DNA of 33,013 nt, taken from IMG/VR virus record IMGVR_UViG_3300045988_025432, positions 1 through 33,013 of that record; one strand, 5' to 3'. This document shows positions 3,828 to 32,645 of this stretch, in pieces. The translations under genes and the position numbers were made by a program. The notes beneath the pieces were generated by a model. The model made no database searches. It was not told the origin of the DNA and saw only the letters and a program-made list of their open reading frames with translations. Origin of the DNA: a virus. Every line of letters starts with the position of its first letter. Position 1 is the first letter of the stretch.

Positions 3828-3828
3828 A

Positions 3829-4500
3829 ATAGCAGAACTAAAGAAATCGTATTACGCAATAATACCTGCAGAAGTTCGATATGATGAAGAATTGCCACCA
3901 AACGCAAAACTATTGTATGGAGAAATTACATCATTGTGTAATGAAAAAGGATATTGTTGGGCAACAAATCAATATTTCGCAGATTTATATAAAGTTTCTA
4001 AAATTACAGTAAGTAGATGGATTAGCATTCTAAACAAAAAAGGATATATTGCCGTAGAAACACTGTATAAAGAAGGAACAAAAGAAATTATCGGAAGGCA
4101 TTTATATATTGTAAATACCCCTATTAACAAAAATGTTAAAGATAATAATAAAGTTATTAATACTAAAATTAATAATAAATTAAAAGTAAGTAAACATAAA
4201 TACGGAGAATATCAACACGTTCTATTAACAGATAAAGAACACACACAACTATTAGATTTATATGGTGATTCATTAGATGAGCATATAAAGATATTAGATG
4301 AGTATATTGAAACGAGTGGAAAGAAATACAAGAACTATTCACTAGTAATTCAGAAGTGGGTACATGATGAATGGACTAAAAGAAATAAAGATAAGCCTAT
4401 CACACTTGATTCAAAGTTTTATGCAGAGCAAAACACAAAAACAGATAAAGAAGTACAGGATGAATTTAATAGGCTTAGAGCACAACTGTTTGGTGCATAA
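3829..4500 (+). CDS. Phage replication protein / replisome organizer (N-terminal winged-helix), predicted ATA start
   Basis: AKLLYGEITSLCNEKGYCWATNQYFADLYKVSKITVSRWISILNKKGYI is the typical HTH replication-organizer N-domain. GGAGG 3816-3820 overlaps the track's GTG 3820 and lies 8 nt before in-frame ATA 3829 (context AATAGCA). Confidence 0.6.
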   Translation: MAELKKSYYAIIPAEVRYDEELPPNAKLLYGEITSLCNEKGYCWATNQYFADLYKVSKITVSRWISILNKKGYIAVETLYKEGTKEIIGRHLYIVNTPINKNVKDNNKVINTKINNKLKVSKHKYGEYQHVLLTDKEHTQLLDLYGDSLDEHIKILDEYIETSGKKYKNYSLVIQKWVHDEWTKRNKDKPITLDSKFYAEQNTKTDKEVQDEFNRLRAQLFGA

Positions 4501-7548: not shown

Positions 7549-7560
7549 GAGGTGGCTTCA

Positions 7561-7755
7561 ATAGAAATGAATTATGAAGAAAGGATTAAAGAGTTAATTT
7601 CTAAAAACAATAGACTAGGAAGGAAGAATATTGAATTGGAGCAGACTTTAAAAGAAAGAAACGCAACAATTCATACTCAAGCTAAAGAAATCAAGAAATT
7701 AAGAAGTGAAGTTGGCGAATTAAAGGATAGATTGTATAAGGTATACAGTTCATGA
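7561..7755 (+). CDS. Small coiled-coil protein, predicted ATA start
   Basis: GGAGG 7548-7552 overlaps the track's GTG 7552. In-frame ATA 7561 (context TCAATAGAA) is 8 nt downstream; the next ATG (7567) is 14 nt away. Confidence 0.5.
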   Translation: MEMNYEERIKELISKNNRLGRKNIELEQTLKERNATIHTQAKEIKKLRSEVGELKDRLYKVYSS

Positions 7756-8078
7756 GCACATATGAAGATATTAAGAGACACTTCTTGTGTGAATGCCAAT
7801 CGTACACATATTATGAGCAAAAGATAGCAGAGCTACAAAGGGATGAAGCAATTTATCCTTTAAAAGCCGAGCTATTCTTAGCTCATGCAGATTATGCAAG
7901 AAGAATGAACTATGTAAAAGACAAATTAAGCCAACTTGATGATACAACTCGAGCCATGATTGAGTATAGATATATAAAGGGATTCAGTGCAGAAAAAACA
8001 TCTAATATTGTAGGTTATGCACGAGAAGAGATTCCAAGAAAAATAAATAAGAACTTAAAGAAAGTGCTCACATTGTGA
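7752..8078 (+). CDS. ArpU/RinA-like late transcriptional regulator (sigma-70 region-4-type HTH)
   Basis: ATGA overlap start. C-terminal RAMIEYRYIKGFSAEKTSNIVGYAREEIPRKINKNLKKV is a sigma region-4-like HTH. It sits at the early/late boundary ahead of the packaging genes. Confidence 0.5.
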   Translation: MSTYEDIKRHFLCECQSYTYYEQKIAELQRDEAIYPLKAELFLAHADYARRMNYVKDKLSQLDDTTRAMIEYRYIKGFSAEKTSNIVGYAREEIPRKINKNLKKVLTL

Positions 8079-8087
8079 GCATTTTTT
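8065..8087 (+). terminator. Rho-independent terminator
   Basis: TGCTCAC (8065-8071) pairs with GTGAGCA (8075-8081), 3-nt loop, then TTTTTT 8082-8087. The stop codon of the upstream gene lies inside the stem. Confidence 0.65.
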
Positions 8088-8104: not shown

Positions 8105-8180
8105 AGCAGGATAGAGCAGTAGTAGCTCACTAGTCTTATTAGCTAGAGGTCGAATGGTGCAAATCCTTCTCCTGCAACCA
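8105..8180 (+). tRNA. Initiator-like tRNA with anticodon UAU (decodes AUA), encoded CCA
   Basis: Hand-folded cloverleaf. Acceptor AGCAGGA/TCCTGCA: A1xA72 mismatch, then 6 Watson-Crick pairs including G2:C71 and C3:G70. T8 A9. D stem GAGC/GCTC (A11:T24), D loop AGTAGTA. Anticodon stem CTAGT/GCTAG, loop CTTATTA (anticodon TAT 8137-8139, T at position 37). Variable loop AGGTC. T arm GAA(T)GG/CCTTC with one bulged T, T loop TGCAAAT. A73 plus CCA. Blocks GAGCAG, GTAGCTC, AGGTCG, CAAATCC and GCAACCA match E. coli and B. subtilis tRNA-fMet as I recall them. Atypical points: no GG in the D loop, G at position 55, pyrimidine at 37, and only one of the three initiator G:C pairs in the anticodon stem. 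Confidence 0.7.
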
Positions 8181-8262: not shown

Positions 8263-8287
8263 ACCGAGCGTTTGTCTCGGTTCTTTT
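8263..8287 (+). terminator. Rho-independent terminator downstream of the tRNA
   Basis: ACCGAG (8263-8268) pairs with CTCGGT (8276-8281), 7-nt loop, T-rich tail TTCTTTT. Confidence 0.5.
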
Positions 8288-8571: not shown

Positions 8572-9044
8572 ATGGAGATTATTAGATTAAAAATCAATGA
8601 CATTACACCTTACGAAAAGAACGCAAAGATTCATACTGAAGCACAAATTGAACAAATTAAGAAATCTATTCAAGAATTCGGCATGAATGACCCAATCGCA
8701 GTATGGGGGGGAACAATACCATAGTTGAAGGACATGGGCGATTAGAAGCCTTAAAGCAATTAGGCTATACAGAAGTTGACTGTATCAGACTAGACCATTT
8801 AACAGATGAAGAAAGAAAAGCTTATACACTTGCTCACAATAAAATCAATATGAATACAGGATTCGACATTGATTTATTGGATGAAGAATTAGACAGTATA
8901 GAAGATATTGATATGGAAGATTTCGGATTTGAAAGCGTAGAAAATATTGATTTGAATAGTTTTTTTGAAGATTCAAATTCAACAAGTGAAAAAGAACCGA
9001 AAAAAATTCAGTGTCCTCATTGTGGTGAATGGTTTGAACAATGA
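8572..9044 (+). CDS. ParB-like nuclease-domain protein with C-terminal zinc ribbon, split by a frameshift in a G7 tract (8705-8711)
   Basis: ATG 8572 after AAGGGGGA. IRLKINDITPYEKNAKIHTEAQIEQIKKSIQEFGMNDPIAVW continues as GGNNTIVEGHGRLEALKQLGYTEVDCIRLDHLTDEERKAYTLAHN only in the -1 frame (track ORFs 8524-8724 and 8703-9044). One extra G would restore a single ORF. Ends with CPHCGEWF. Confidence 0.65.
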
Positions 9045-9101: not shown

Positions 9102-9299
9102 ATGAAATTGTATCTAGCAGGAGGACAAGCACAACGAAAGACGGCTATCCCTAAAGTAGGAGAAGATATGAAAATGTATTTAGCGTCTGTTTCGAGACTT
9201 GAAACAGATTTAAAAGCAGAGAGTGGAGGATTAATGAAAGCATATCTAGCAGAGAGTGGAGGATTAATCTTCAATGACGCTAACATATTGCAATCATTC
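9102..9299 (+). repeat. Three 66-nt-phased copies of the dpdA 5' end (ATGAAA-NNN-TAT-YTA-GC..), plus a 20-nt exact direct repeat 33 nt apart
   Basis: ATGAAATTGTATCTAGC at 9102, ATGAAAATGTATTTAGC at 9168, ATGAAAGCATATCTAGC at 9234, all in one frame (MKLYLAGG / MKMYLAS / MKAYLAESGG). GCAGAGAGTGGAGGATTAAT occurs at 9216-9235 and 9249-9268. A perfect 8-bp hairpin TCTGTTTC/GAAACAGA lies at 9186-9208. Confidence 0.8.
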
Positions 9300-9947
9300 T
9301 ATTATGTGGATGACTTCACTCGAAATATAATCATCCCAAATTGTAAGGATTTCTTATTAGATAGTGGAGCATTTACATTTATACAGAATGCGAAACACGT
9401 TGATTGGGATGAATATGTAGAAAAATATGCAAAATTTGTTAGAGAAAACAAGATTCAGAAATATTTTGAATTAGATATTGATTCAATCGTTGGATTAAAA
9501 GAAGTAGAACGATTAAGAACGAAACTAGAAAGATTAGTTGGTTGGCAATGTATTCCTGTATGGCACAGAAGCAGAGGAATGGATTATTTTATAAAGCAGT
9601 GTGAAGAATACCCTTATATAGCAATCGGTGGAATCGCAATCAAAGAAATAAAGCAAAATGAATATCCTATCTTTAAAGTGTTGATAAAAGAAGCACATAA
9701 AAGAAATACAAAGGTACACGGCTTAGGTTTCACACAATTAAAGAAACTGAAAATGTATAACTTTGATTCTGTAGATAGTTCATCATGGGTTAGTGGCAAT
9801 AGATTCGGTGCTATATATTGGTTTAACGGAGAAACTTTAGAAAAGATAAATAAACCAAAAGGAAAACGAGTGAAGAGTTCACAAACTGCTATAAATAACT
9901 TTATACAGTGGAAGAAATTCGCTAATTATGTAGAAAGGACATATTAA
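9168..9947 (+). CDS. dpdA: DpdA-type (TGT-like) DNA 7-deazaguanine transglycosylase
   Basis: NILQSFYY..FLLDSGAFTFIQN (TGT-type DSG catalytic Asp motif), IAIGGIA, and FDSVDSSSW fit phage/bacterial DpdA. The start is ambiguous: ATG 9168 has the best SD (TAGGAG, 6 nt), ATG 9234 gives the minimal conserved protein, and ATG 9102 has no SD. Confidence 0.65.
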   Translation: MKMYLASVSRLETDLKAESGGLMKAYLAESGGLIFNDANILQSFYYVDDFTRNIIIPNCKDFLLDSGAFTFIQNAKHVDWDEYVEKYAKFVRENKIQKYFELDIDSIVGLKEVERLRTKLERLVGWQCIPVWHRSRGMDYFIKQCEEYPYIAIGGIAIKEIKQNEYPIFKVLIKEAHKRNTKVHGLGFTQLKKLKMYNFDSVDSSSWVSGNRFGAIYWFNGETLEKINKPKGKRVKSSQTAINNFIQWKKFANYVERTY

Positions 9948-10250
9948 ATGATTGAGAATAAAGAAAAAGTAAAATATATCGAAATGTATCCAAAGGCAAG
10001 ATGTTTCTGCCCTATTGGCAAAGCATGGTACACGAATAGATTTAAAGTATCAGTATTCCCTAGAGATTGTTATTTCGATTATCTAGATGTAGAGAAATTT
10101 ATTAAAGAAGAAATTGAAGGAAAAAGCTTAACAATTGAAGGAGCTTGTAAGAAGTTATATGACTATTTGAAAAAAGATGTTGAAGATATTCAAGTAGAAT
10201 CACACGTAAATGACGCAATTCACTTTCCTGTAAAGGTATTAATTGATTAA
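9948..10250 (+). CDS. Small T-fold protein, possibly QueF-like (preQ0 reductase-like)
   Basis: CFCPIGKAWYTNRFKVSVFPRDCYFDYLDVEKFIKEE aligns by eye with B. subtilis QueF [37 protein letters not shown] (from memory). It lies between dpdA and queT. It is shorter than canonical QueF. Confidence 0.35.
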   Translation: MIENKEKVKYIEMYPKARCFCPIGKAWYTNRFKVSVFPRDCYFDYLDVEKFIKEEIEGKSLTIEGACKKLYDYLKKDVEDIQVESHVNDAIHFPVKVLID

Positions 10251-10722
10251 TGAGGAAGCATTAATAAAGAATCAAACAATTAAGACAATTTCAATGAATG
10301 CAATCGTATGTGCAATGTATGTTGCATTATGTGTAGCACTAAATCCAATTAGCTTTGGAGCATTACAATTTAGAGTAGCAACTCTATTGTTACCATTAGG
10401 ATTTCAAGATAAGAGATTTGCAAATGGAATTATTCTAGGTGTAATCTTAGCAAACTTAACAAGTTCACTAGGATTAATTGATGTATTGGTTGGATTTACA
10501 ATTCAATTTACAATGTATTATTTATTCCCATATTTTATTAAGAATAAATGGATTCATGGAATTGCTTATGCAGTATTAAGTGGAACGCTAGTAGCATTAG
10601 AATTATTATCAGTATTACACATCCCATTCTTATATTCATTTATTACAGTAGGATTAAGTGGACTAATCTTATATGAAGTAGGGAATGTATTATGTACAAG
10701 ATTATTGAAATACATTGATTAA
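10243..10722 (+). CDS. queT: QueT-family queuosine-precursor transporter (ECF S-component-like membrane protein)
   Basis: About 150-160 aa, all hydrophobic helices. NAIVCAMYVALCVALNPISFGALQFRVATLLLPL matches the QueT signature (..aAlYv.lt..p.sfg.iQfRvsE.l). The start is ambiguous: TTG 10243, in-frame ATA 10264 (7 nt after GAGGA), or ATG 10294. Confidence 0.6.
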   Translation: MINEEALIKNQTIKTISMNAIVCAMYVALCVALNPISFGALQFRVATLLLPLGFQDKRFANGIILGVILANLTSSLGLIDVLVGFTIQFTMYYLFPYFIKNKWIHGIAYAVLSGTLVALELLSVLHIPFLYSFITVGLSGLILYEVGNVLCTRLLKYID

Positions 10723-12424: not shown

Positions 12425-12427
12425 GAA

Positions 12428-13831
12428 ATAGAAACATCTAACACACGTAGACCGTGGTTTCAGAATTACCTAAACGATAGAGGGTATTATGTAGACACAA
12501 ACGCAATTGAAATTATTGAATTGTGCAACAAGTGGTACACGAATACCGAAACAGAATTTCATACGGCATACACCTTGAATAACGAGGAATACACGCTAGA
12601 TAAAACAGACTTTGCAAAGCGTTTATGTGAGGATGACGCAAACCTAATTGAAATCCTAGATATAAACGCTACAGAGGATAGCGTTACAAATGACATTATT
12701 TCAGACATTCTAACAAAGAATAGATTTGATGTAATGTACAGAAAACAGGTTGAGCAAATGTCTGCAAATGGTACTGTAGGAGCTTATGTAACGGTATCAA
12801 ATGCCGAGATTTATGAAGATGGTACATTCAGTGGAGGAGAAATCAGAATCAATTATTGTGATTCAATGAATATCCTTCCATTAACTGTTATAAATGATGA
12901 AATTGTGGAAGTTGCTTTCGTTGGAGTAAATTATGAGAAACTAAAGAAAGTATATGTGATGGTCATGTTCTTAAAAGGACAAGACGAAAGATATATTGCA
13001 GAAACACATTACTTCAAAGACACAGGCGAGGAAATAAAAGAACGTGCTCAGATTGTTCAACTAGATGTAGTTAAACCCTTTGCAATTATGAGAAATGCAA
13101 AGGTAAACAACTTACAAATGCAAGGGTACGGCTTACCTAAAATTTGGAGTGCAATCGCTCCTTTAAAGACAATTGACCTAACAATGACAATGTGGAATCG
13201 AGATTTATTGAAGTCAGATAAAATCGTTCTTGTGAATGAAGCATTAATGCAGAAAGACGAGAATGGAAAGATTAAGATGAATCCACAAATGAAAAAGATT
13301 TTTGTTCAGTTAGGTAGAGACAAGTTACCGGAAGAAAAAGCTTTATGGCAAGAATACAATCCAACAGTTAGAACACAAGAAGTTGTTCAATCACTAGAAA
13401 CTGCTTTAAGCATCTTATCAATGATGTTTGGATTCGGCACAAAGAAATACACGTTTGAAAGTGGAAGAATTGTGACGGCTACAGAATACATTGGTGAGAA
13501 TCAAGACGCAATGAAGGAAGTAAACTCACAACGTAAAGAATCTACGGCTTATATTCAAGATATCATTCAAGCAATAGCATACTTCTATGAATTAACACAA
13601 GGCAGAAAGCTTAATATCAATTCATTAGATATTGCAATTGATTATGATGATACATATATAGAGGATAAGCAAAGCACTGCACAAGCGTTAAGAAATGACG
13701 CACTTACATTTGATATTCCAAGATTGAAAATTATGTACTTTATGAAACAATACGGATTTACAGAAGAAGAAGCAACGGAATTATTAAACGAAGAAATTCA
13801 AGATGATGGAGAGGGGGATGACGAAGAATAG
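12428..13831 (+). CDS. Portal protein (SPP1 gp6-like), predicted ATA start
   Basis: Size and position fit a portal. The frame opens at 12425, right after the terL stop. The 31 codons before the track's TTG 12521 read as coding (ETSNTRRPWFQNYLNDRGYYVDTNAIEIIE) and contain no ATG/GTG/TTG. AAGGAGG 12415-12421 lies 6 nt before ATA 12428. Confidence 0.8.
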   Translation: METSNTRRPWFQNYLNDRGYYVDTNAIEIIELCNKWYTNTETEFHTAYTLNNEEYTLDKTDFAKRLCEDDANLIEILDINATEDSVTNDIISDILTKNRFDVMYRKQVEQMSANGTVGAYVTVSNAEIYEDGTFSGGEIRINYCDSMNILPLTVINDEIVEVAFVGVNYEKLKKVYVMVMFLKGQDERYIAETHYFKDTGEEIKERAQIVQLDVVKPFAIMRNAKVNNLQMQGYGLPKIWSAIAPLKTIDLTMTMWNRDLLKSDKIVLVNEALMQKDENGKIKMNPQMKKIFVQLGRDKLPEEKALWQEYNPTVRTQEVVQSLETALSILSMMFGFGTKKYTFESGRIVTATEYIGENQDAMKEVNSQRKESTAYIQDIIQAIAYFYELTQGRKLNINSLDIAIDYDDTYIEDKQSTAQALRNDALTFDIPRLKIMYFMKQYGFTEEEATELLNEEIQDDGEGDDEE

Positions 13832-14645: not shown

Positions 14646-16652
14646 ATGAACATTATTGAAGTCGATGTAGGAAAGACAAAGCTATTTAGCATTGGGCAAC
14701 AATACAATAACAATGCATTAGTTATTCATTTTGTAAATTTGCCGAATCAAAAGAATAAATACATCTATTATAAAATTGATGATATTGAAGAAGAAATTCC
14801 TTTAGTGAGTGATTTATTTATTGCATCTAGACCATTAATGCTTCACAGTGGAGAAGTTAAAGCACAAATTATCACACGTGATGAGAACAATTCAATAATT
14901 GAATTAACAAAGAATTTCACAATGAGAATACAACCTAGTAATTATAGTGGTATTGGAGAGGATGAGAACTATCCGGATGACCCAAATATCAAGAACTACT
15001 ATGTTAAAATTGACGGAAAGATTCAATCAATGGATGAATTGATTGCTTTGGTCCAATCTAAATTGGATAACGGAGAATTTGTAGGTGTTCAAGGCCCGAA
15101 AGGTGAAAAAGGCGACCCCGGTGATGTAACTGAGGAATACAGAAACTTGGCTAATCAAGTCGCACAAAATGCAACAAGCGCTCAGAAAGCTTTGGATGAT
15201 ACGAAAGAATTTGTGAATCAAACAAAAACAGAATTGAATCAAATCAAAACTGATACAAGTGCATTAAAAGATGAAGCTAATACAAGCGCAGTAAATGCGA
15301 AAGCTTCAGAAGATAAAGCAAAGGAATATGCCGACAATTTGCAAGCATCAACTGATGATATTAGTAAACTAAAGGAAGATTTAGTCGCAAATACAAAAGA
15401 AGATGCAAAGACGAAACGAAGTCTATCGGCGTTGTGGGCTTTAAATAATGGTATCTCTTATAGATTTGAAACTGATTCAGAAAAAGCTTATCAGAAGAAA
15501 GTTCTGAGCGGTGCTAAGTTGGCTTCTGTTAATAAAGTCGGTGGAAAGACGATTGTTATGAATCAGATTTTTAAAATCGCATCAATCAGTGCAAACGGAT
15601 TAACCTTCTCGGTTGACAGTGATGGTTTAATTACAATAAATGGAACAGCATCATCTTATTTTGCAACATTATCACAAATTAATGACTTGCAAAATAAAGA
15701 AGGTAAATTTTTCGCCAAAATGACAATTGTTGAAAATCCAAACACTGTAGCATTTAAATTTGGATATACAAACAGAAATAAATTTACGGATGCTATATCA
15801 AGCGGAAGCACTAGTACTATATTCACACAAACTAATGCAGAATTAGCTAAAGCTAAATATCAAGGAATCGCAGGATTTCAAGAAGGTACGGTATTTGACA
15901 ATGTAAAAGTGAAAATCATGATATTTAACTTAACCAAAATGTTCGGTTCAGGAAATGAACCTACAACTCCGGAAGAGTTTGAAGCAATGTTTCCAAACGA
16001 CTACTACGCATACAATGAAGGAGAATTAATGAGTATGAGCGTAAATGATGTAGTCTATACTGACACATCTAGCAATCAGAACTCGCACCAAATCCCACAA
16101 TCAATCCTAAGCTTAGATGGCTATGGATGGAGTGCAGGAACGGCTTATAACTATGTAGATTTTGAAAATAAGAAATATTACAAGTGCGTTGATAAAGTGA
16201 ATTTAGGTACTTTAGATTATCAAAACGGCAATAATGTAAGCTTTGTATCAGAAGGTTTAAAAGGATATAAATTAACGAACAAATATTCTACCGTTCCAAA
16301 TATTGTTTGCAAAAAATATGAAGCAAAATCACAGAACCAAATGCGGGGCAATAAAGATGTAACTGGAATCTCTGTAAATGCACTTAGCGATGGGTATTTA
16401 TACATCAATGATTTGTCATTTAGTGATGCCGAATCGTTTAAGAATGCTTTACAAGGAGTTTATCTATATTACGAATTAGCCGAACCAATCGTAACAGATA
16501 TATCAGATATTATCGGAGATACATTCCAAGAATCTTTAAATGTTGAGAGTGGCGGAAGTTTAACATTTAAAAACACAAATGGAGACGGATACAGAATCGC
16601 AGTACCTAGCGATATTCAATACACAGTCGCGTTAAGCGAGGTGAACGCATAA
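14646..16652 (+). CDS. Tail (or head) fibre protein with a short collagen-like segment and coiled coil
   Basis: GVQGPKGEKGDPGD collagen-like triplets, a long heptad-like region (15150-15420), and a large C-terminal beta-rich domain. ATG 14646 is preferred over the upstream GTG/ATG at 14613. Confidence 0.6.
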   Translation: MNIIEVDVGKTKLFSIGQQYNNNALVIHFVNLPNQKNKYIYYKIDDIEEEIPLVSDLFIASRPLMLHSGEVKAQIITRDENNSIIELTKNFTMRIQPSNYSGIGEDENYPDDPNIKNYYVKIDGKIQSMDELIALVQSKLDNGEFVGVQGPKGEKGDPGDVTEEYRNLANQVAQNATSAQKALDDTKEFVNQTKTELNQIKTDTSALKDEANTSAVNAKASEDKAKEYADNLQASTDDISKLKEDLVANTKEDAKTKRSLSALWALNNGISYRFETDSEKAYQKKVLSGAKLASVNKVGGKTIVMNQIFKIASISANGLTFSVDSDGLITINGTASSYFATLSQINDLQNKEGKFFAKMTIVENPNTVAFKFGYTNRNKFTDAISSGSTSTIFTQTNAELAKAKYQGIAGFQEGTVFDNVKVKIMIFNLTKMFGSGNEPTTPEEFEAMFPNDYYAYNEGELMSMSVNDVVYTDTSSNQNSHQIPQSILSLDGYGWSAGTAYNYVDFENKKYYKCVDKVNLGTLDYQNGNNVSFVSEGLKGYKLTNKYSTVPNIVCKKYEAKSQNQMRGNKDVTGISVNALSDGYLYINDLSFSDAESFKNALQGVYLYYELAEPIVTDISDIIGDTFQESLNVESGGSLTFKNTNGDGYRIAVPSDIQYTVALSEVNA

Positions 16653-16654
16653 TA

Positions 16655-16801
16655 ATGACAGAAACACAAATTAAAATGATGGAAAAGTTAGGCTTATCAA
16701 AAGAAGATTTTGAGCCTATCAATAAAGAAGAATTACTTGAAGAAGCGTATTTAAAAGCCGAATACAATTCGATTTTAATTGAGCAATTAATGGAGGAATA
16801 A
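16655..16801 (+). CDS. Small hypothetical protein (48 aa)
   Basis: ATG 16655, TAA 16799-16801; fills the gap after the fibre gene; below the track length cut-off. Confidence 0.4.
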   Translation: MTETQIKMMEKLGLSKEDFEPINKEELLEEAYLKAEYNSILIEQLMEE

Positions 16802-20257: not shown

Positions 20258-20270
20258 GGAGGATTAATTA

Positions 20271-21140
20271 ATAGCGAATGAAATTGCATTAGCTAAAACG
20301 TATGTTTCAAATCTTGATGAGGTATATAAATTAGCTTCAGTAACGGGTGATTTAAATGCAGACGCTACAATGGTACGAGCCGGAGCAAACGCAAAAGAAA
20401 TTATCTATCCACAAATTTCTGTTAAAGGTTTAGGAAACTACGATAGAAATAGCGGATATACATCAAACTCAGTCAAATTGGAATGGAAGACTGCTACATT
20501 TGATTACGATAGAGGAACAAAAATTGCAGTAGATACACAAGACAATGCAGAATCAATGAATATTGCGTTCGGTAGAGCAGGAGCAGAATTAATGCGTACA
20601 AAGGTAGCACCGGAAGCAGACGCTTACACGTTCGCTAAAATTGCCGGTACAACAGGAATCACAAAAGTTTCAGAAGATTACGCAAGTGCGGAAGAATTTT
20701 TGAGTGCATTATTAAAAGCCGTTACTCAAATGGATGAGGATGAAGTTCCTAGTGAACAACGTATCTTGTATGCTACGCCTACATTATTAAATGGAGTCAA
20801 GGCATTAGATACTTACAAATCACGTGAAGCTTTACAAGGATTCGCAAAGGTAGTTCCTGTACCTGCTAGTCGTTTCTATACAAAGATTAAATTGTTGAGT
20901 GGAGCAGATACAGAAGCAGAAGGTGGATATACTAAAGCAGAGGATGGGCACGTTATCAACTTCTTGATTGTTCATAAACCTTCTGTTATGAAATGGGATA
21001 AACACACTGTTTCAAATGTGATTCCTGCAAGCAATAACATTGAATCAGATTCAGATGTATTGAAATATCGTAAATATGGAATCGTTGATGTATACGCAAA
21101 TAAGGTGGCAGGTATCTACTTATCTGCTAGTGCGAAGTAA
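20271..21140 (+). CDS. Major capsid protein, predicted ATA start
   Basis: Position after the scaffold gene, and NYDRNSGY..DYDRGTKIAVDTQDNAESMNIAFGRAGAELMRTKVAPEADA is capsid-like. The frame opens at 20268. The 33 codons ((M)ANEIALAKTYVSNLDEVYKLASVTGDLNADAT) before ATG 20370 contain no canonical start. AAGGAGG 20256-20262 lies 8 nt before ATA 20271. Confidence 0.8.
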   Translation: MANEIALAKTYVSNLDEVYKLASVTGDLNADATMVRAGANAKEIIYPQISVKGLGNYDRNSGYTSNSVKLEWKTATFDYDRGTKIAVDTQDNAESMNIAFGRAGAELMRTKVAPEADAYTFAKIAGTTGITKVSEDYASAEEFLSALLKAVTQMDEDEVPSEQRILYATPTLLNGVKALDTYKSREALQGFAKVVPVPASRFYTKIKLLSGADTEAEGGYTKAEDGHVINFLIVHKPSVMKWDKHTVSNVIPASNNIESDSDVLKYRKYGIVDVYANKVAGIYLSASAK

Positions 21141-21642: not shown

Positions 21643-22058
21643 TAGGATTTTTTGAAGATTCAATCACACTTGTAAATCACTACTATGATACATTGACGAG
21701 AGAAGATAGGTTTCAAGCTTCTATCCTTGATAAATGTATGTGGAGACAATCAACTGTTAGAACTGCAAACGGTAATATTCTGAGCATAGCCACATCCACA
21801 AATATTACCATTCTATATCGTGAAGGATATGTTGAACCTTACGCATATGCAAAGCTTTCAAATGATGAGAAGCAAAAACATTTCACATTGAATACAGATA
21901 AAACAGATTTCGTATTCTTTGGAGAAGTGAAAGAAGATTTATCCACAATTAAAGCAATAAACGAAGCTAAAAAGAAATACAAATGGACAACGATTCAAAG
22001 CGTAACAGATTGTACGAATGTAGATATGTTGAAGCATTGGGAGGTTGTCGGTCAATAG
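21639..22058 (+). CDS. Head closure/stopper-type protein (assigned by position)
   Basis: ATG 21639 in an ATGA overlap with the upstream stop. Synteny-based call. Confidence 0.45.
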   Translation: MIGFFEDSITLVNHYYDTLTREDRFQASILDKCMWRQSTVRTANGNILSIATSTNITILYREGYVEPYAYAKLSNDEKQKHFTLNTDKTDFVFFGEVKEDLSTIKAINEAKKKYKWTTIQSVTDCTNVDMLKHWEVVGQ

Positions 22059-22417: not shown

Positions 22418-22833
22418 CAGTATCAAAAGCATTAATCCAATGGTTATATGGCTATGGAAATATACAGATAGATGAACGTATTGAAACGGATGTTTTAGCG
22501 CAACAGGCTATCTCTTATGCGTTGTATAAAGAACCTAACGCAATTGTAGATACATACATTGACGGCTCTCAAATGCGTACTGAATATTACACGTTTCTAG
22601 CTCGTAGGAATACACAAATTGAAACCGAAAGGCAAGACAACAATTCTTTCTTAGAAGAATTAGGAGAATGGATTGACGAAAAGAATTTAAACGGAGAATT
22701 ACCACAACTAGACGGAAACAGATATTGTGAGGATGTTTCCGTTTCAAGTGGCTTATATCTATACACAAATGAGGATAGTCAAGCAGTATATGCCTTGACT
22801 ATTCAAATCAAATACAGAAAGGAGCTTAATTAA
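22414..22833 (+). CDS. Tail completion/terminator-type protein (assigned by position)
   Basis: ATGA overlap start; directly precedes the major tail gene. Confidence 0.45.
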   Translation: MTVSKALIQWLYGYGNIQIDERIETDVLAQQAISYALYKEPNAIVDTYIDGSQMRTEYYTFLARRNTQIETERQDNNSFLEELGEWIDEKNLNGELPQLDGNRYCEDVSVSSGLYLYTNEDSQAVYALTIQIKYRKELN

Positions 22834-23339
22834 TAGCAACTCAAGGGACCGAAGTAAGTACAGGACAGACAGTCAAGAAGTATATGATTGGATTGTTCTT
22901 AGAAATGGGAACAGGTTATAAGCGAATTAAGAAGTCTACAACTTTAGATATTTCATTTAACAGTGAAACTGAAACTTATGATTTTATCGCAGATAAGAAC
23001 CCAACAGAATCATTGAAAAGTTATTCACCTCAGATTTCGCAAGATTTAACAATGATTAAAGGTGAAGATGATTTTGAATATATTTATGAACAAATGATGA
23101 AATCCGTTCCTAACAATGAAGAAGTAAATACAAAATCTTTAATTGTATTCATGTTTGACGGAGATAAAACAAAAGGCTATAAAGCGTGGGAAGTTGACTC
23201 TAAATTAATCTTTGACACATTGAGTGGCGTTGATTCAAAAATCAACTTTAACATTAACTTTGCAAGCGATATTCGTGTTGGTATTGCAAAGGTAGCAGAT
23301 GGAACAGTGACATTCACAGAAGGTACATCAGAAGTATAA
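22833..23339 (+). CDS. Major tail (tube) protein, predicted ATA start
   Basis: Position upstream of the chaperone pair and tape measure gene. The frame opens at 22830. ATA 22833 (context TTAATTAATAGCA, the same as the capsid start) lies 8 nt after AAGGAG. The first ATG (22884) has no SD. Confidence 0.65.
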   Translation: MATQGTEVSTGQTVKKYMIGLFLEMGTGYKRIKKSTTLDISFNSETETYDFIADKNPTESLKSYSPQISQDLTMIKGEDDFEYIYEQMMKSVPNNEEVNTKSLIVFMFDGDKTKGYKAWEVDSKLIFDTLSGVDSKINFNINFASDIRVGIAKVADGTVTFTEGTSEV

Positions 23340-23357: not shown

Positions 23358-23720
23358 ATGAATAGAATTACGTATGAAGGGAAACAGTATGAAATCCCAC
23401 CTAAAACAATTGAAGTTTTAAAAGCAGAGGACGCTTGTAACGCATTTCACGCTACACATGAAGAAGCATATCGAGCAAAATTCGACTATCTGAAAACAGT
23501 ATTAACAGATGAACAAATTGAAAGCATGTTAGGAAGCGTAGATATTGAACAAGTAGATTTAATGGAAGTGTTGTATATTGTGAATTTAATTGATGAAGAA
23601 TATTCAAGAAGAACAAATGAGCAAACAATGAAGAAAGCTAGAACATTAATGAACGATAAAGCAATCAAAAGCTTAATTGATGCAAGCAATGCAGTTTCAA
23701 AGATTACGGAAAAGAAATGA
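23358..23720 (+). CDS. Tail assembly chaperone (assigned by position)
   Basis: 120-aa acidic protein between the tail tube and tape measure genes. Confidence 0.5.
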   Translation: MNRITYEGKQYEIPPKTIEVLKAEDACNAFHATHEEAYRAKFDYLKTVLTDEQIESMLGSVDIEQVDLMEVLYIVNLIDEEYSRRTNEQTMKKARTLMNDKAIKSLIDASNAVSKITEKK

Positions 23721-24280
23721 TTGATTTACGGACAAAAGGCTTGCCAAATAGCATACAGTCGCTAGATGGCGAGCCTATTTTATTAAATACAGATTTTCGG
23801 TTGTGGATTCGCTTCTATGAAGAATTTGAAAGATTCAATAATCATGTTATTGATGAAATAGATTGTTCTTATTTATTCGTGGATGAACCGCCTATCATAG
23901 ACAAGCATATTTTAAAAGAGTTAGAACGATTCCTATATAATCCTTCTAGCACGCCTAGAAGTGATTCTACAGGTGCTAAGACATTAGACTATGTACAAGA
24001 TGGTGAATATATTTATTCGGCTTTTATGCAACTTTACGGCATTGATTTAACGGAATGTGATATGCATTGGCACAAATTCTTAGCACTAGCCAATAATATA
24101 GTTGGTGATTCAACTTTATGGGGATATGCAAAGAGCGTTAGAGGATATGAAAAACCTTCAAAGAATGATACGCAAGATAAGGCATATCAAAGAGCAAAAG
24201 AAGCGTGGTCTTTCCCAATCGAGTTGACAAAAAGGGAGCAAGAAATGAAAGATGAATTTGATTCATATTTTGATGTTTAG
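23717..24280 (+). CDS. Gp15-like tail assembly protein
   Basis: ATGA overlap start. Position immediately upstream of the tape measure gene, Trp/Phe-rich pattern reminiscent of the Phage_Gp15 family. Confidence 0.45.
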   Translation: MIDLRTKGLPNSIQSLDGEPILLNTDFRLWIRFYEEFERFNNHVIDEIDCSYLFVDEPPIIDKHILKELERFLYNPSSTPRSDSTGAKTLDYVQDGEYIYSAFMQLYGIDLTECDMHWHKFLALANNIVGDSTLWGYAKSVRGYEKPSKNDTQDKAYQRAKEAWSFPIELTKREQEMKDEFDSYFDV

Positions 24281-24300
24281 AAAAGGAGGTGGCAAATTGA

Positions 24301-26880
24301 ATATCAGATGGAACATTAAAGTTTGAAACAAAGATAGATACAAGTGGTCTAGAGAATGGTATTAAATCTGTAAAGGTTGTATCAAGTGAAGCCACAAATG
24401 CTATTAAAGAAACTTCAAAAGCGATTGATAAGCTAGGTTCTGATGGTTCAAAAGCACCACCAAAGATTAAAGATAAACTTAAAGATTTAAACGAAGAGCA
24501 AAAGAATACACAGACAGAAACGCAAGAAACAGGTTCTAAATTTGATGTATTTAAGCAAGTAGGTAACAGTGCATTAGAATCAATTCAAGGTGGATTTGAT
24601 GGACTATTAGGAAAGATTCAGAATATTAGTCCGGAAGCTAGTGCAATCACTGAAACCTTAACAGGATTAGGCGTAGGAGGTGTTGTTGGTGTTACTGCCG
24701 TAGCCGGAGCTATTGGTGGAATGGCACTAGCAATTAAAACAGGTGTTAATCAAGCTATTGAATTAGATGACGCTATGGCTAAATTCCAAGCTCAGACAGG
24801 TGCTTCAAGTAATGAAATGAGCAAATTTAAAAACATTGCTCGTGATGTTTGGTCTAATAATTTCGGTGAAGATGTTTCAGATGTTGCCGATATGATGGGC
24901 AGAGTCAAGCAACAAATGCAAGGCATAAGTGATGTTGATTTAAAGGATGTTACTGAGGATTTATTGACATTAAGAGACACATTCGGAATGGACGAGAACG
25001 AAACATTAAGAGGTGCTCAACAATTAATGAAGCAGTTCGGAATTAGTTCTAAAGAAGCTTTTGACCTTATGGCTACAGGTGCTCAGAATGGTTTAAACAA
25101 ATCAGATGAGTTAGGCGACAACATTTCAGAATACTCCGGTAAATTCAAGCAAGCAGGATATTCGGCAGAAGAATACTTCCAATTAATGCAGAATGGATTA
25201 GATGGTGGAGCTTATAACCTTGATAAAGTAAATGACGCAATCAACGAAGTTACCACAAGGTTAGTCGATGGAACTATTGAAGGAGCTTTAGATAGTTTTG
25301 ATACCAAGACGCAAGATGTCTTTAAAGCTTGGCAAGAAGGAAGAGCAACTCAGAAAGATGTTGTGAATGCGATTGTTGAGGATATTTCTAAGACAACAAA
25401 TGAGCAAGAAAAGTTGAATAAATCGGCAACGGCTTTCGGTACAATGGGAGAAGATTTCAACGCCGGATTCATTCAGTCCTTAACGACAGTAGGGAATAAA
25501 TATAAAGATGTAGAAGGGGCAATGGATAAAGTCAAAGAAATTGCAAATGGTGGCTTAAAGAACGCTTTAAGTGGCTTAGGGCGTGCATTTCTTGATTCAT
25601 TTACTCCAATAGGCGAACTTATTACCCCTATTCTTGCAGGTATCATTGGATTGATTACAGTAGCTATACAAGGTATTCAACAAGGATTTGCTAAAGTTGG
25701 TGATGTAATTTCAAGTGTATTAAGTAAGATTGATACAAGTGGAATTACAGAATTAACAAGTCAAGTTTCCGAAGTGTTAGCACCTTCCTTTGATAAAGTA
25801 AAAGACGCAATCGACAAAATGAAAGTTGCACTTGAACCTATTGCAAAAGATATATTAAGCAAGATTATTGATGTAATTCAAAACATTGTGAATCAAGCTC
25901 AAAAGATTTTAACAGTGGTAGGTCCACCGATACTTTCTGTTTTAAAGAAAATCATTTCAACGGTTTCGGAATTTATGCCTTTAATCACATCTATATTGAC
26001 TATTGTCGGAAGTGTTGTAAGTGGAGTTATTTCATTTATAAATATGGTAGTCACATATACCGGAACGGCAATCGCAACGGCAATGGGATTTATCATGCCT
26101 ATTGTTCAAATCATAGCTACAATCGTAGCGAATATTTGGTCTGTAATATTAACGGTTGCTCAGAATATTTGGAGCAAAGTTAGCGAAGTAGTTACTGCCA
26201 TTATTGGATTCGTAAGCAATTTGTTTAAAACAGTTTCGGACATCATAAACAATATTTGGAGCAAGATTCAAGACGCAATGAATAGAGTCGGCGATAAGGT
26301 AAAAGGTGTTATTGATAATATCAATAAATATTTCAATAATGTTAAGAGTACTGTTTCTGATGTATTCAATGGCATTTGGTCTAAGGTCCAAGGTGTGATG
26401 GACAATGTAGGAAATAAAATTTCAAATGTTCTACAAGGAATACAGAATTCATGGAGCGGTTTAAAAGGATTTGTAAGTGGTGTATTTGGTGGAATTGAAG
26501 GAGCAGTTAGTTCATTAGTTGGAAGTGTAAAAGGAATGGTAAATGGTGTTATCGGTGGTATTAACGGTGCAATCGGTATCATTAATAAAATCCCGGGAGT
26601 TCACATTGGAAGGATTCCAAGACTAGAGCGTGGCGGTGTATTGAAGCGTGGTCAAATCGGTTTATTAGAAGGTAATGGAGCAGAAGCAGTCGTACCATTA
26701 GAAAAAAATAAAGCGTGGATTCGTGCCGTAGCTAAAGATATGGTCCAAATCATGCCTAGTGTAACAACAAATAACAACGGACAGACTATCAACTTCTACA
26801 ATAAAGTTCAAAGTCCGGATGAAATCGCTAGAATGTTACGTATGCAAGCAAGATATGGATATGGAGGTGTAGTTCAATAG
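24301..26880 (+). CDS. Tape measure protein, predicted ATA start
   Basis: Length, a Gly/Ala/Val-rich TM-like core, and repeated NIWSK motifs. The frame opens exactly at ATA 24301 (preceded by TGA). The next 140 codons ((M)SDGTLKFETKIDTSGLENGIK.., a typical TMP N-terminus) contain no in-frame ATG/GTG/TTG. The AAGGAGGTGG SD is 8-11 nt upstream. Confidence 0.85.
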   Translation: MSDGTLKFETKIDTSGLENGIKSVKVVSSEATNAIKETSKAIDKLGSDGSKAPPKIKDKLKDLNEEQKNTQTETQETGSKFDVFKQVGNSALESIQGGFDGLLGKIQNISPEASAITETLTGLGVGGVVGVTAVAGAIGGMALAIKTGVNQAIELDDAMAKFQAQTGASSNEMSKFKNIARDVWSNNFGEDVSDVADMMGRVKQQMQGISDVDLKDVTEDLLTLRDTFGMDENETLRGAQQLMKQFGISSKEAFDLMATGAQNGLNKSDELGDNISEYSGKFKQAGYSAEEYFQLMQNGLDGGAYNLDKVNDAINEVTTRLVDGTIEGALDSFDTKTQDVFKAWQEGRATQKDVVNAIVEDISKTTNEQEKLNKSATAFGTMGEDFNAGFIQSLTTVGNKYKDVEGAMDKVKEIANGGLKNALSGLGRAFLDSFTPIGELITPILAGIIGLITVAIQGIQQGFAKVGDVISSVLSKIDTSGITELTSQVSEVLAPSFDKVKDAIDKMKVALEPIAKDILSKIIDVIQNIVNQAQKILTVVGPPILSVLKKIISTVSEFMPLITSILTIVGSVVSGVISFINMVVTYTGTAIATAMGFIMPIVQIIATIVANIWSVILTVAQNIWSKVSEVVTAIIGFVSNLFKTVSDIINNIWSKIQDAMNRVGDKVKGVIDNINKYFNNVKSTVSDVFNGIWSKVQGVMDNVGNKISNVLQGIQNSWSGLKGFVSGVFGGIEGAVSSLVGSVKGMVNGVIGGINGAIGIINKIPGVHIGRIPRLERGGVLKRGQIGLLEGNGAEAVVPLEKNKAWIRAVAKDMVQIMPSVTTNNNGQTINFYNKVQSPDEIARMLRMQARYGYGGVVQ

Positions 26881-28761: not shown

Positions 28762-28773
28762 GGAGTGAATTTA

Positions 28774-29274
28774 ATAGAAAAGAAAAATGGAGGATTTAAA
28801 CAAATAGCAAGAAGTATGTTTTTTCTAGATAAGATTAATGCAATGTGTGGTGTTGCCGTAGCCGTATTAACATACGTATTAGGTGAACATTGGTATTTAT
28901 TCGCATTCTTCTTATTTATGAATGTAGTGGATTATATTACAGGGTGCATGAAATCGGCGATTAATCACAAAATCAATAGCAATAAAGGATGGATTGGAGT
29001 CCTTAAAAAGCTAGGCTATTGGATTATGATTGTAGTTGCGTTCACATTCAGTGCATTCTTGGTTGAGATTGGAAAAATGCTAGGAATTGATTTCCATGTA
29101 TCTACATTGTTAGGTTGGTTTGTGTTAGCTTCGCTATGTATTAATGAATCTCGTAGTGTTATGGAGAATTTATTACAATGTGGTTACAATGTACCAAAAG
29201 CATTAACTAAAGGTTTGGAAGTAGCGGATAAAATCGTTAACGAAGACAATGACGAATCAAGTACCTTGGAATAA
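28774..29274 (+). CDS. Holin (phage_holin_4-type), predicted ATA start
   Basis: Several TM helices plus GWIGVLKKLGYW and the INESRSVMENL motif typical of this holin family. AGGAG 28761-28765 overlaps the track's GTG 28765 and lies 8 nt before in-frame ATA 28774 (context TTAATAGAA). Confidence 0.7.
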   Translation: MEKKNGGFKQIARSMFFLDKINAMCGVAVAVLTYVLGEHWYLFAFFLFMNVVDYITGCMKSAINHKINSNKGWIGVLKKLGYWIMIVVAFTFSAFLVEIGKMLGIDFHVSTLLGWFVLASLCINESRSVMENLLQCGYNVPKALTKGLEVADKIVNEDNDESSTLE

Positions 29275-31860: not shown

Positions 31861-31883
31861 TGGCATATAAAGGAGGATTTTTA

Positions 31884-32645
31884 ATAGATTATCAAAGCTT
31901 TAAAAAAGCCGTATTAGGCAAAGCATTCGATTTAGACCATGCATATGGTGCTCAGTGTTGGGATGGAGGCATGAAATATTTAATCGATTTAGGCTACAAA
32001 GCTATCCATTGTACAACAACTGGCTATGTAAAAGATATTTGGAATAATCGAAAGACAAATGGAATTTTAAACTATTGTAATGAGGTCTCAATTATGCAAC
32101 CTGGTGACATTGCAGTATTCAAGGAAGTAGCAGGATGGACACCGTATTCACACATTGCGATTTTCGATTCAGACATTGATGGTAAGTTCGGTTGGTTCTT
32201 AGGACAGAACCAAGGTGGAAAAGGTGGAGCATTCAATTTAATTAAATTGCCTTATTATGCAACCTTTGATACTGCGTTTAGACCTAAATGTTTCGCAAAT
32301 ACAGGAGCAGTTAAACCAAGTATTCCACAACCTGTAGAAGCAATTGACCAAATCTTGCACGCAGGAAGCTACGTAACATCCGTACAAATGAAGATTGGCA
32401 ATCAAGGATTGAAACAAATCAATGGCGATTTATGCGCATACCTTGCACAATTAGGTGGTTGGTTTCCAATTCGTTTAGTCGACAAAGTTCGCTATTCTGA
32501 TGGATATAATGATAACGTATTGCATACAACAAATGCCGTTGTCTATGTTACAAGAATTCGTGTTGATGAAGTCAACGTACAAAAGAATCTTGCGAAAATC
32601 GGTGGAATTTGGGTAAATTGTGACCCATTAATTGAAGTAGCATAA
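31884..32645 (+). CDS. CHAP-domain endolysin with a C-terminal cell-wall-binding domain, predicted ATA start
   Basis: DLDHAYGAQCWDGG (catalytic Cys) and YSHIAIFDS (His) are CHAP motifs. AGGAGG 31871-31876 lies 7 nt before in-frame ATA 31884 (TTAATAGAT). The track's TTG 31860 lies inside the -10 hexamer and upstream of the SD. Confidence 0.8.
   Translation: MDYQSFKKAVLGKAFDLDHAYGAQCWDGGMKYLIDLGYKAIHCTTTGYVKDIWNNRKTNGILNYCNEVSIMQPGDIAVFKEVAGWTPYSHIAIFDSDIDGKFGWFLGQNQGGKGGAFNLIKLPYYATFDTAFRPKCFANTGAVKPSIPQPVEAIDQILHAGSYVTSVQMKIGNQGLKQINGDLCAYLAQLGGWFPIRLVDKVRYSDGYNDNVLHTTNAVVYVTRIRVDEVNVQKNLAKIGGIWVNCDPLIEVA

Follow-up and report, generated by a model that had tools for sequence, protein, structure and literature searches.

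In bacteria, the 1:72 mismatch of an initiator tRNA directs it to formylation and away from EF-Tu. The pairs G2:C71 and C3:G70 and the base A73 are formylation determinants in E. coli, and the D stems of elongator tRNAs carry a pyrimidine at position 11 and a purine at position 24. We analyzed 33,013 nucleotides of viral DNA (IMG/VR record IMGVR_UViG_3300045988_025432, positions 1 to 33,013; this whole stretch is called the window below), which carry a tRNA gene of the initiator type with the anticodon UAU and a set of phage genes that start with ATA. Like E. coli tRNAfMet (metZ, metW, metV and metY), this tRNA and its homologues have a 1x72 mismatch, G2:C71, C3:G70, A73 and A11:U24. They differ from tRNAfMet in being encoded by a phage and in having the anticodon UAU, U37, a U.G pair at 31:39 and fewer stem G:C pairs; their mismatch is AxA, GxA or CxA, whereas that of tRNAfMet is always CxA. 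An elongator tRNA-Ile(UAU) has the same anticodon, and ARAGORN labels homologues of the phage tRNA as tRNA-Ile(tat). Unlike such an elongator, the phage tRNA has no 1:72 pair for use by EF-Tu, carries a pyrimidine at 37 and A11:U24, and is nearer to the initiator in sequence.

Pairing outside the start codon also has a described counterpart. In quadruplet recognition, base 37 of the initiator tRNA is complementary to the mRNA base just before the start codon (Hollerer & Jeschek 2023, PMC10018350). It was shown there that the A37U change in E. coli tRNAfMet is tolerated, that complementarity between bases 37 and -1 raises expression and favours mRNAs with A(-1), and that the G(-1).U37 wobble also works. 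As cited in PMC10018350, earlier chloroplast work with a weak start codon (Esposito et al.) agreed with the -1:37 effect. A preliminary description of the window, made from its letters, had stated that extended pairing in initiation was proposed before, and for the -1:37 pair this precedent is experimental. In PMC10018350 the pair modestly modulates AUG in engineered strains, whereas here it would be natural, near-obligatory and linked to a dedicated AUA initiator, and it is seen as sequence conservation alone. Engineered orthogonal initiator tRNAs, such as the amber initiator tRNA used for phage biocontainment (bioRxiv 10.1101/2024.07.29.605542) and i-tRNA-AAC (bioRxiv 10.64898/2025.12.21.695813), likewise combine an initiator body with a changed anticodon and a matching non-AUG start, and capsid genes were made tRNA-dependent in such systems. 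They are man-made and supplied by the host, whereas here the phage supplies the tRNA and about a fifth of its own starts are recoded. In S. aureus, infC, ccpN and citZ have AUA or AUU starts with a strong or extended Shine-Dalgarno sequence in a low-GC Gram-positive setting, as here, and the host initiator alone gives ~10-30% of the AUG output at AUA starts (bioRxiv 10.1101/2025.06.19.660503). These native AUA starts are rare, attenuating and without a dedicated tRNA; in the phage, ATA starts serve highly needed proteins and are accompanied by a cognate initiator-type tRNA. In full-text literature searches, neither an AUA initiator tRNA encoded by a phage nor a phage that uses ATA starts systematically was found to be described. 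Such a system is seemingly undescribed.

We showed that the ATA starts of the window stand in an A-ATA-(G) context, which is specific to them far beyond chance. The starts were chosen by Shine-Dalgarno match, spacing and open reading frame (ORF) only, and the flanking bases were ignored. Twelve were called, at positions 519, 3829, 7561, 12428, 13828, 20271, 22055, 22833, 24301, 26877, 28774 and 31884. Nine of them are strong and have no competing canonical start nearby; 519, 7561 and 28774 are plausible, with a close alternative. Each start is listed with its flanking bases and with the Shine-Dalgarno sequence or other evidence in brackets.

518-522, + strand: A-ATA-G of a 40-amino-acid ORF, plausible only, within a tandem ATAATA (GGAGGTG, spacing 8).
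3828-3832, + strand: A-ATA-G of the replication initiation protein (GGAGGTG, spacing 6; PHROG match from residue 3-6).
7560-7564, + strand: A-ATA-G of a 64-amino-acid ORF, with an alternative ATG two codons downstream (AGGAGGTG, spacing 6).
12427-12431, + strand: A-ATA-G of the portal protein (AGGAGGT, spacing 5; second codon after an in-frame stop; PHROG portal match).
13827-13831, + strand: A-ATA-G of the head morphogenesis protein, whose inner TAG is the stop codon of the portal gene (Shine-Dalgarno sequence, codon-position variation, PHROG).
20270-20274, + strand: A-ATA-G of the major head protein (AGGAGG, spacing 8; PHROG 422).
22054-22058, + strand: A-ATA-G of a minor head or head-tail protein, overlapping the upstream TAG stop (GGAGGT, spacing 9; codon-position variation; PHROG; orthologues).
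22832-22836, + strand: A-ATA-G of a 168-amino-acid protein, the major tail protein judging by gene order (AGGAG, spacing 8).
24300-24304, + strand: A-ATA-T of the tape measure protein, the sole +4 exception in the window (AGGAGGTG, spacing 9; directly after an in-frame TGA; PHROG).
26876-26880, + strand: A-ATA-G of the distal tail protein, overlapping the TAG stop of the tape measure gene (GGAGGTG, spacing 7; PHROG).
28773-28777, + strand: A-ATA-G of the holin, with alternatives A-ATA-G at 28803-28807 and ATG at 28816 (AGGAG, spacing 8; PHROG holin).
31883-31887, + strand: A-ATA-G of the endolysin (AGGAGG, spacing 7; PHROG endolysin match from residue 3).

The preliminary description had reported A at -1 for all 12 of its ATA starts, and our independently chosen list gave the same 12/12. 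It had counted G at +4 in 10 of 12; the enrichment held, and the count in our list is 11/12, with ATA-T at 24301 as the exception. Thus 92% of the starts have both bases. The internal in-frame ATA codons (n = 132), named beforehand as the comparison that could speak against the pattern, do not share this context: A(-1) is found at 34% of them, G(+4) at 31% and both at 7.6% (Fisher p = 7e-6, 6e-5 and 4e-10, respectively). The context also differs from that of the 39 ATG starts of the window, where -1 is A in 49% and T in 31%, and +4 is A in 56% and G in 23% (p = 0.0015 for -1 A and 3e-5 for +4 G). When three lineages (the window, L162 and L123) were pooled, the comparison of 29 ATA with 62 ATG starts gave p = 6e-7 for -1 A and p = 8e-7 for +4 G. 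The base composition stated earlier (A about 40%, G about 20%) was close to the determined values of 39% and 20%. The further idea that the context separates start ATA codons from internal ones was not supported, as the Shine-Dalgarno sequence does most of this work and 10 of the 132 internal codons also lie in the A..G context.

Four independent lines of evidence show that these ATA codons are genuine starts. Several of them open the frame right after an in-frame stop, and the first ATG, GTG or TTG lies 17-140 codons downstream (for example, at 12428 and 24301). Using ~38 close relatives (96-100% portal identity), we determined the variation between the ATA and the first canonical start. By codon positions 1/2/3 it was 3/4/18 in the portal gene, 6/2/16 in the head morphogenesis gene and 11/7/44 in the tape measure gene, so that most changes fell on third positions, as in coding sequence. 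No in-frame stops were found in these intervals among the ~38 relatives, and the ATA itself was invariant in them, save for L029, which has ATG at the 22833 site. Residue 2 of the major head protein aligned to position 2 of the PHROG 422 profile, and its orthologues in two other lineages likewise start with ATA. At orthologous starts, ATA and ATG interchange between lineages. In total, ATA starts serve about 20% of the phage genes. Gene calls in public assemblies shorten these genes: the major head protein is given as 256 instead of 289 amino acids, the tape measure protein as 719 instead of 859, and the distal tail protein as 187-222 instead of 289 (L187-L191).

We also observed tandem ATAATA behind Shine-Dalgarno sequences at 516-521 and 16649-16657 in the window, at 1154-1159 in L162 and at 7671-7676 in L177; the one at 16649 reads ATAATAATG. 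Such a tandem could offer two adjacent start registers.

Relatives of the phage were found by portal-based and loop-based searches. They form, together with the window, four lineages whose portals are 56-68% identical to one another and in which the tRNA lies just upstream of the packaging genes with an identical loop, CUUAUUA. Shine-Dalgarno-backed ATA starts were called in all of them (12 in the window, 11 in L162, 6 in L123 and 7 in L177). In more distant relatives (portal identity 42-46%: L160, L180-L185), the 10 kb on each side of the portal gene contained no tRNA of this kind. Their ATA calls were at background only, comparable to ATT and ATC decoys, and the portal gene of L160 starts as a-ATG-a. 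Thus, the tRNA and the ATA starts co-occur across lineages. Of the 36 ATA starts in the four lineages, 35 have A at -1 and the remaining one (the L162 portal gene) has G, and A and G are exactly the two bases able to pair with U. In L177 there is one possible T(-1) case, but a GTG two codons further on would serve equally well as its start. At the pooled ATG starts, -1 is A in 45%, T in 27%, C in 18% and G in 10%. Six variants of the spacer were found within the species at the 7561 site, and A(-1) was unchanged in all of them. The TerS gene, which starts with c-ATG-g in the window, has a-ATA-g at its start in two other lineages.

The tRNA gene and its anticodon loop are placed as follows.

8105-8180, + strand: initiator-type phage tRNA with the anticodon UAU and an encoded CCA (Rfam RF00005; alignment with E. 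coli metZ, metT and ileX; cloverleaf covariation).
8135-8141, + strand: anticodon loop C32 U33 U34 A35 U36 U37 A38, DNA CTTATTA (sequence and RF00005 placement).

The RF00005 match covers 8105-8177 (48.8 bits, E = 1e-7), with the encoded CCA at 8178-8180, and it places the anticodon loop exactly as it had been read before. The loop CUUAUUA is invariant in 13 distinct tRNA variants and in the fourth lineage. One cloverleaf fits all 13 variants with 99% of the cells paired, and 8 compensatory pairs are changed on both sides; in control alignments that were slid, 38-55% were paired. ARAGORN gave no call for the gene in the window, likely because of the unpaired 1:72, a one-base bulge in the T stem and the unusual T loop UGCAAAU. 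The bulge base varies among relatives (U, C or A). For comparison, the E. coli initiator metZ and the elongators metT and ileX were taken by coordinates from the K-12 annotation. With metZ, the phage tRNAs share 66-77% identity, and with the elongators Met and Ile2 47-56%. Positions 1 and 72 form no Watson-Crick pair: they are AxA in the window lineage and L169, CxA in L092/L123, and GxA in L161-164 and L176-178. The three differing forms of the mismatch indicate that selection acts on the mismatch itself. G2:C71, C3:G70 and A73 are invariant in 13/13 variants, as in metZ. A11:U24 is also present in 13/13, whereas metT and ileX have C11:G24. Stretches common to the phage tRNA and metZ include the D arm GAGCAG..UAGCUC, the variable/T junction AGGUCG and the 3' end GCAACCA. 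In close relatives there is an alternative anticodon arm, GUCGGU-CUUAUUA-GCCGAA, which is nearly that of tRNAfMet, GUCGGG-CUCAUAA-CCCGAA. None of the features of an elongator tRNA-Ile(UAU) was found, namely a paired 1:72, a purine modified to threonylcarbamoyladenosine (t6A) at 37, and a pyrimidine 11 with a purine 24. The anticodon in all members is UAU and not the initiator CAU. The sequence indicates that the tRNA is derived from a bacterial initiator tRNA, and it probably works as an initiator, though not as a standard tRNAfMet.

BLAST with the tRNA against E. coli genomes gave no match. Among cultured phages, the sole match was the tRNA-Met of Mycobacterium phage Phabba (79%), and a scan of a genome collection with 185,579 species representatives found no copy of the window tRNA. 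The window proteins were scanned, apart from nine ORFs, and those covered included no formyltransferase, aminoacyl-tRNA synthetase or initiation factor. The elbow of the tRNA also differs between lineages. The window lineage has the D loop AGUAGUA with the T loop UGCAAAU (8118-8125, 8158-8164), and L169 and the other lineages have the usual D-loop GG with the T loop UUCAAAU or UUCGAUU. The changes of G18 to A and of U55 to G co-occur and may compensate each other in the tRNA elbow.

The best overall explanation, which we hold with moderate confidence, is that the phage initiator tRNA reads A-AUA starts with the aid of an A(-1):U37 pair. In the phage copy of an initiator tRNA, the anticodon would have changed from CAU to UAU and base 37 from A to U. 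The tRNA would be charged and formylated, would enter the ribosomal P site and would start translation at an AUA led by a Shine-Dalgarno sequence. The codon-anticodon helix would have three A-U pairs and no stacking purine at 37, and A(-1):U37 would add a fourth Watson-Crick pair. Since an all-A/U triplet lacks the stacking of purine 37, the fourth pair should matter more here than at AUG. It would explain why A(-1) is near-invariant at ATA and not at ATG starts, and judging from the sequences we consider it somewhat probable that the pair contributes to ATA initiation. In S. aureus, AUA is weak with the host initiator alone, and the phage places ATA on genes whose products are needed in the largest amounts (among them major head, portal, tail, tape measure, holin and endolysin); a dedicated tRNA would therefore be of functional use. 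By analogy with the anticodon-swapped tRNAfMet of E. coli, on which Schulman, and RajBhandary and colleagues, are said to have worked, the amino acid on the phage tRNA may be isoleucine. Taken further, the tRNA (UAU, U37), perhaps charged with isoleucine, would form a private initiation channel that reads the four-base A-AUA through a four-pair helix and makes the capsid, tail, lysis and replication genes tRNA-dependent. We regard this wider proposal as tentative, with a chance a little short of even.

The preliminary description had gone one pair beyond this. It had proposed a five-pair helix with U33-U37, in which G(+4).U33 would be the fifth pair and would help to distinguish start from internal ATA. 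Indeed, A-AUA-G can be drawn antiparallel to U37-U36-A35-U34-U33, and the preference for G at +4 is real, though softer than the -1 signal. Over the four lineages, +4 is G in 25 of 36 ATA starts, A in 6, C in 3 and T in 2, so that 31 of 36 are purines; G is found in 11/12 starts of the window, 6/11 of L162 and 3/7 of L177. However, A would be the better partner for U33 and has about double the genomic frequency of G, yet it stands at only 6 of 36 sites, and C or T is found at 5 of 36, with C at +4 in the portal and tape measure starts of one lineage. Position +4 is also polymorphic within the species, where A or T replaces G at three sites (at 22833, A in some relatives). In the orthologue groups, it tracks the gene family (for example, Ala2 of TerS with either start codon) and not the start codon. 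U33 is near-universal in tRNAs, where its role in the U-turn keeps it from pairing, and the codon in the A site begins with +4. The E. coli initiator aligned here also carries U33, while the pooled ATG starts prefer A at +4 (61%, with G at 21%); therefore, U33 cannot explain a G that is specific to ATA starts. A pairing of +4 G with U33 is thus very unlikely, and the full five-pair model is just as doubtful. The +4 G may instead be favoured because it stacks on the weak A(+3):U34 pair, or because GNN second codons are of benefit. Hence the complementarity to five bases that had been claimed is partly supported: the -1:U37 part agrees with A at 35 of 36 starts, whereas the +4:U33 part comes down to a G.U wobble at 25 of 36. 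As a hypothesis, the four-pair version is well supported, and the fifth pair is not.

The context could also be independent of the tRNA. The host initiator would read weak ATA starts, the flanking bases would reflect general preferences of the ribosome or initiation factors or local openness of the mRNA at weak starts, and the tRNA would be an elongator supplement for AUA isoleucine codons. The tRNA-Ile(tat) label given by ARAGORN to homologous tRNAs fits this, as do the native S. aureus AUA starts with an extended Shine-Dalgarno sequence, which work at 10-30% of AUG. Shine-Dalgarno pairing is stronger at the ATA starts of the phage (-13.0 vs -10.1 kcal/mol at ATG starts), which is partly a product of how the ATA starts were selected, and the T signal at -3 and -4 described below is not explained by the tRNA. 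We consider this explanation quite unlikely, since the mismatch in three forms, G2:C71, C3:G70, A73 and A11:U24 match the initiator, and a pyrimidine at 37 does not suit an elongator for ANN codons. Moreover, the most abundant virion proteins use ATA, and the tRNA and ATA starts that occur together are jointly absent in distant relatives, as far as the tRNA is concerned within 10 kb of the portal gene. Alternatively, U37 may have nothing to do with mRNA pairing: it could evade t6A modification or anticodon nucleases of the host, or influence which synthetase charges the tRNA, and A(-1) would be selected for other properties of AUA initiation. Anticodon-loop changes in phage tRNAs are reported to evade host defences that target tRNAs (PMC10264068), and U37 is invariably accompanied by U31.G39, which suggests a remodelled junction of loop and stem. 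This alternative is unlikely, as it leaves A in 35 and G in 1 of 36 starts at -1 unexplained and A37U/A(-1) complementarity works experimentally in E. coli (PMC10018350). Finally, A(-1) and G(+4) could be by-products of compact gene boundaries, left by stop codons in ATAG or TAATA. The TAG at +2..+4 is the stop of the upstream gene at 3 of the 12 window starts (13828, 22055 and 26877), an upstream TAA overlaps the ATA at 22833 by one base, and an in-frame TAA or TGA occupies -3..-1 in 9 of 29 ATA starts, of which 1 is among the 12 in the window. We rejected this origin because it covers only 3-4 of 12 sites, and it is extremely unlikely: TAG at +2..+4 ends no gene in 8/12 window starts, -3..-1 is not a stop in 11/12, and A(-1) is also found within TTA, TCA, AGA, GAA and CTA.

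A number of observations weigh against the reading with an initiator tRNA and an A(-1):U37 pair. Base 37 never varies in the family and so offers no natural compensatory change for the -1:37 pair. This also leaves the earlier suggestion that the tRNA and mRNA contexts co-vary unsupported, as U37 is invariant in every member found and shows a single state only. By chance, one conserved -1 base in four would be expected to match base 37, and at sites where ATA and ATG are swapped, A(-1) is often present with ATG too. The ATG starts of the phage are not enriched in U(-1) (31% vs 27% T in the genome); therefore, they give no sign of a -1:37 effect with the initiator tRNA of the host. The context is also wider than the pairing. 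In the pooled three lineages, T stands at -3 in 19 of 29 ATA and 10 of 62 ATG starts (p = 5e-6) and at -4 in 16 of 29 and 10 of 62 (p = 2e-4), and A is depleted at -2 of ATA starts. The resulting consensus is TTNA-ATA-G (in the window, for example, 20267-20269, 22829-22831 and 31880-31882). Loop pairing does not predict these features, which points to a further influence on the context. Initiators typically have three consecutive G:C pairs at 29-31:39-41, and this hallmark is not present. The anticodon stem of the window tRNA has A29:U41, G30:C40 and U31.G39, with one G:C pair left; the variant stem has G29:C41, G30:C40 and U31.G39, with two left, and U31.G39 is conserved. The elbow of the window tRNA, with its T loop UGCAAAU and bulged T stem, is odd, and ARAGORN did not call the gene.

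A helix continued past -1 to A38, G39 and C40 was considered and rejected. It predicts U, C and G, and the observed bases are mixed at -2 and T at -3 and -4.

To look for variants of base 37, we searched collections of viral, metagenomic and genomic sequences for tRNAs of the initiator kind whose loop reads CUUAUNA. It turned out that initiator-like UAU tRNAs with A37 exist (L069, L070, L078, L082, L119, L154, L155 and several metagenome-assembled genomes). The DNA around these A37 versions contained no convincing ATA starts. Apparent ATA-start matches in L078 were rejected as internal codons, and L119 and L078 do not use Shine-Dalgarno sequences. Sporadic initiator-type UAU tRNAs with A37 (C37 in one) were also noted in L110, L112, L113, L114, L146 and others, from metagenome-assembled genomes (Collinsella, Dehalococcoidia, Terracidiphilus), a Roseobacter isolate genome and metagenome contigs. 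The tRNA of L154, a 96-kb metagenome contig, has an initiator body with C1xA72, three G:C pairs, A37 and the anticodon UAU. On the reverse strand of this contig (1-12309), many ORFs are preceded by an in-frame TAG and have no nearby start codons, and a 213-codon ORF without any ATG, GTG or TTG opens with ATA right after TAG. This suggests that TAG is read through (recoded) in the L154 phage.

If the A(-1):U37 reading is true, no natural initiator tRNA dedicated to a non-AUG codon would have been found earlier in bacteria or bacterial viruses, and quadruplet start recognition would be proven in nature. It would mean that a mobile element with its own initiator tRNA could reassign the identity of the bacterial start codon. 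The fourth -1:37 pair, known so far as a modest effect in engineered E. coli and chloroplasts, would have evolved naturally, and the number of bases that define a bacterial start site could be tested where the effect should be large. In practice, gene callers truncate ATA-start genes. The tRNA and the context together are a ready-made orthogonal initiation part for synthetic biology and phage biocontainment.

The window has a GC content of about 33%, and all its genes are on the + strand. It encodes a replication and recombination module (ERF, SSB, a replication initiator and RusA) and a module for packaging, head, tail and lysis. In the public assembly L188, the genome is circularly permuted, measures about 38 kb and includes an integrase and a repressor. 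In L189-L191, the end of the phage adjoins bacterial genes, namely those of a cysteine synthase-like PALP protein, homoserine O-succinyltransferase, an Rrf2 regulator and a xanthine/uracil permease. The circularly permuted and the integrated forms together indicate a temperate prophage, and all relatives derive from human-gut samples. We take the window for the larger part of a temperate, siphovirus-like prophage whose host is a low-GC bacterium of the human gut. Two terminator-like hairpins lie on either side of the tRNA gene.

8065-8081, + strand: terminator-like hairpin upstream of the tRNA (T run on the + strand).
8263-8281, + strand: terminator-like hairpin downstream of the tRNA (sequence).

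At 1-2.6 kb downstream of the tRNA there are a gene of the queuine tRNA-ribosyltransferase/DpdA-like type (9168-9944; PHROG 887, 6e-59) and a gene of the QueT queuosine-precursor transporter (10243-10719; PF06177). From their annotation, this pair is probably a 7-deazaguanine DNA-modification module. A run of seven G (about 8706-8712) divides the gene of a ParB-like nuclease (8572-9044) into two ORFs that overlap; positions 7-50 of the PHROG 620 profile match the first ORF and positions 53-176 the second. A sequencing error, a frameshift or phase variation at this tract could account for the split. The ORFs 23358-23720 and 23681-24280 (the latter Phage_Gp15), which precede the tape measure gene, also overlap. 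By its arrangement, this pair has the apparent layout of tail chaperone genes, which are usually joined by a programmed -1 frameshift.

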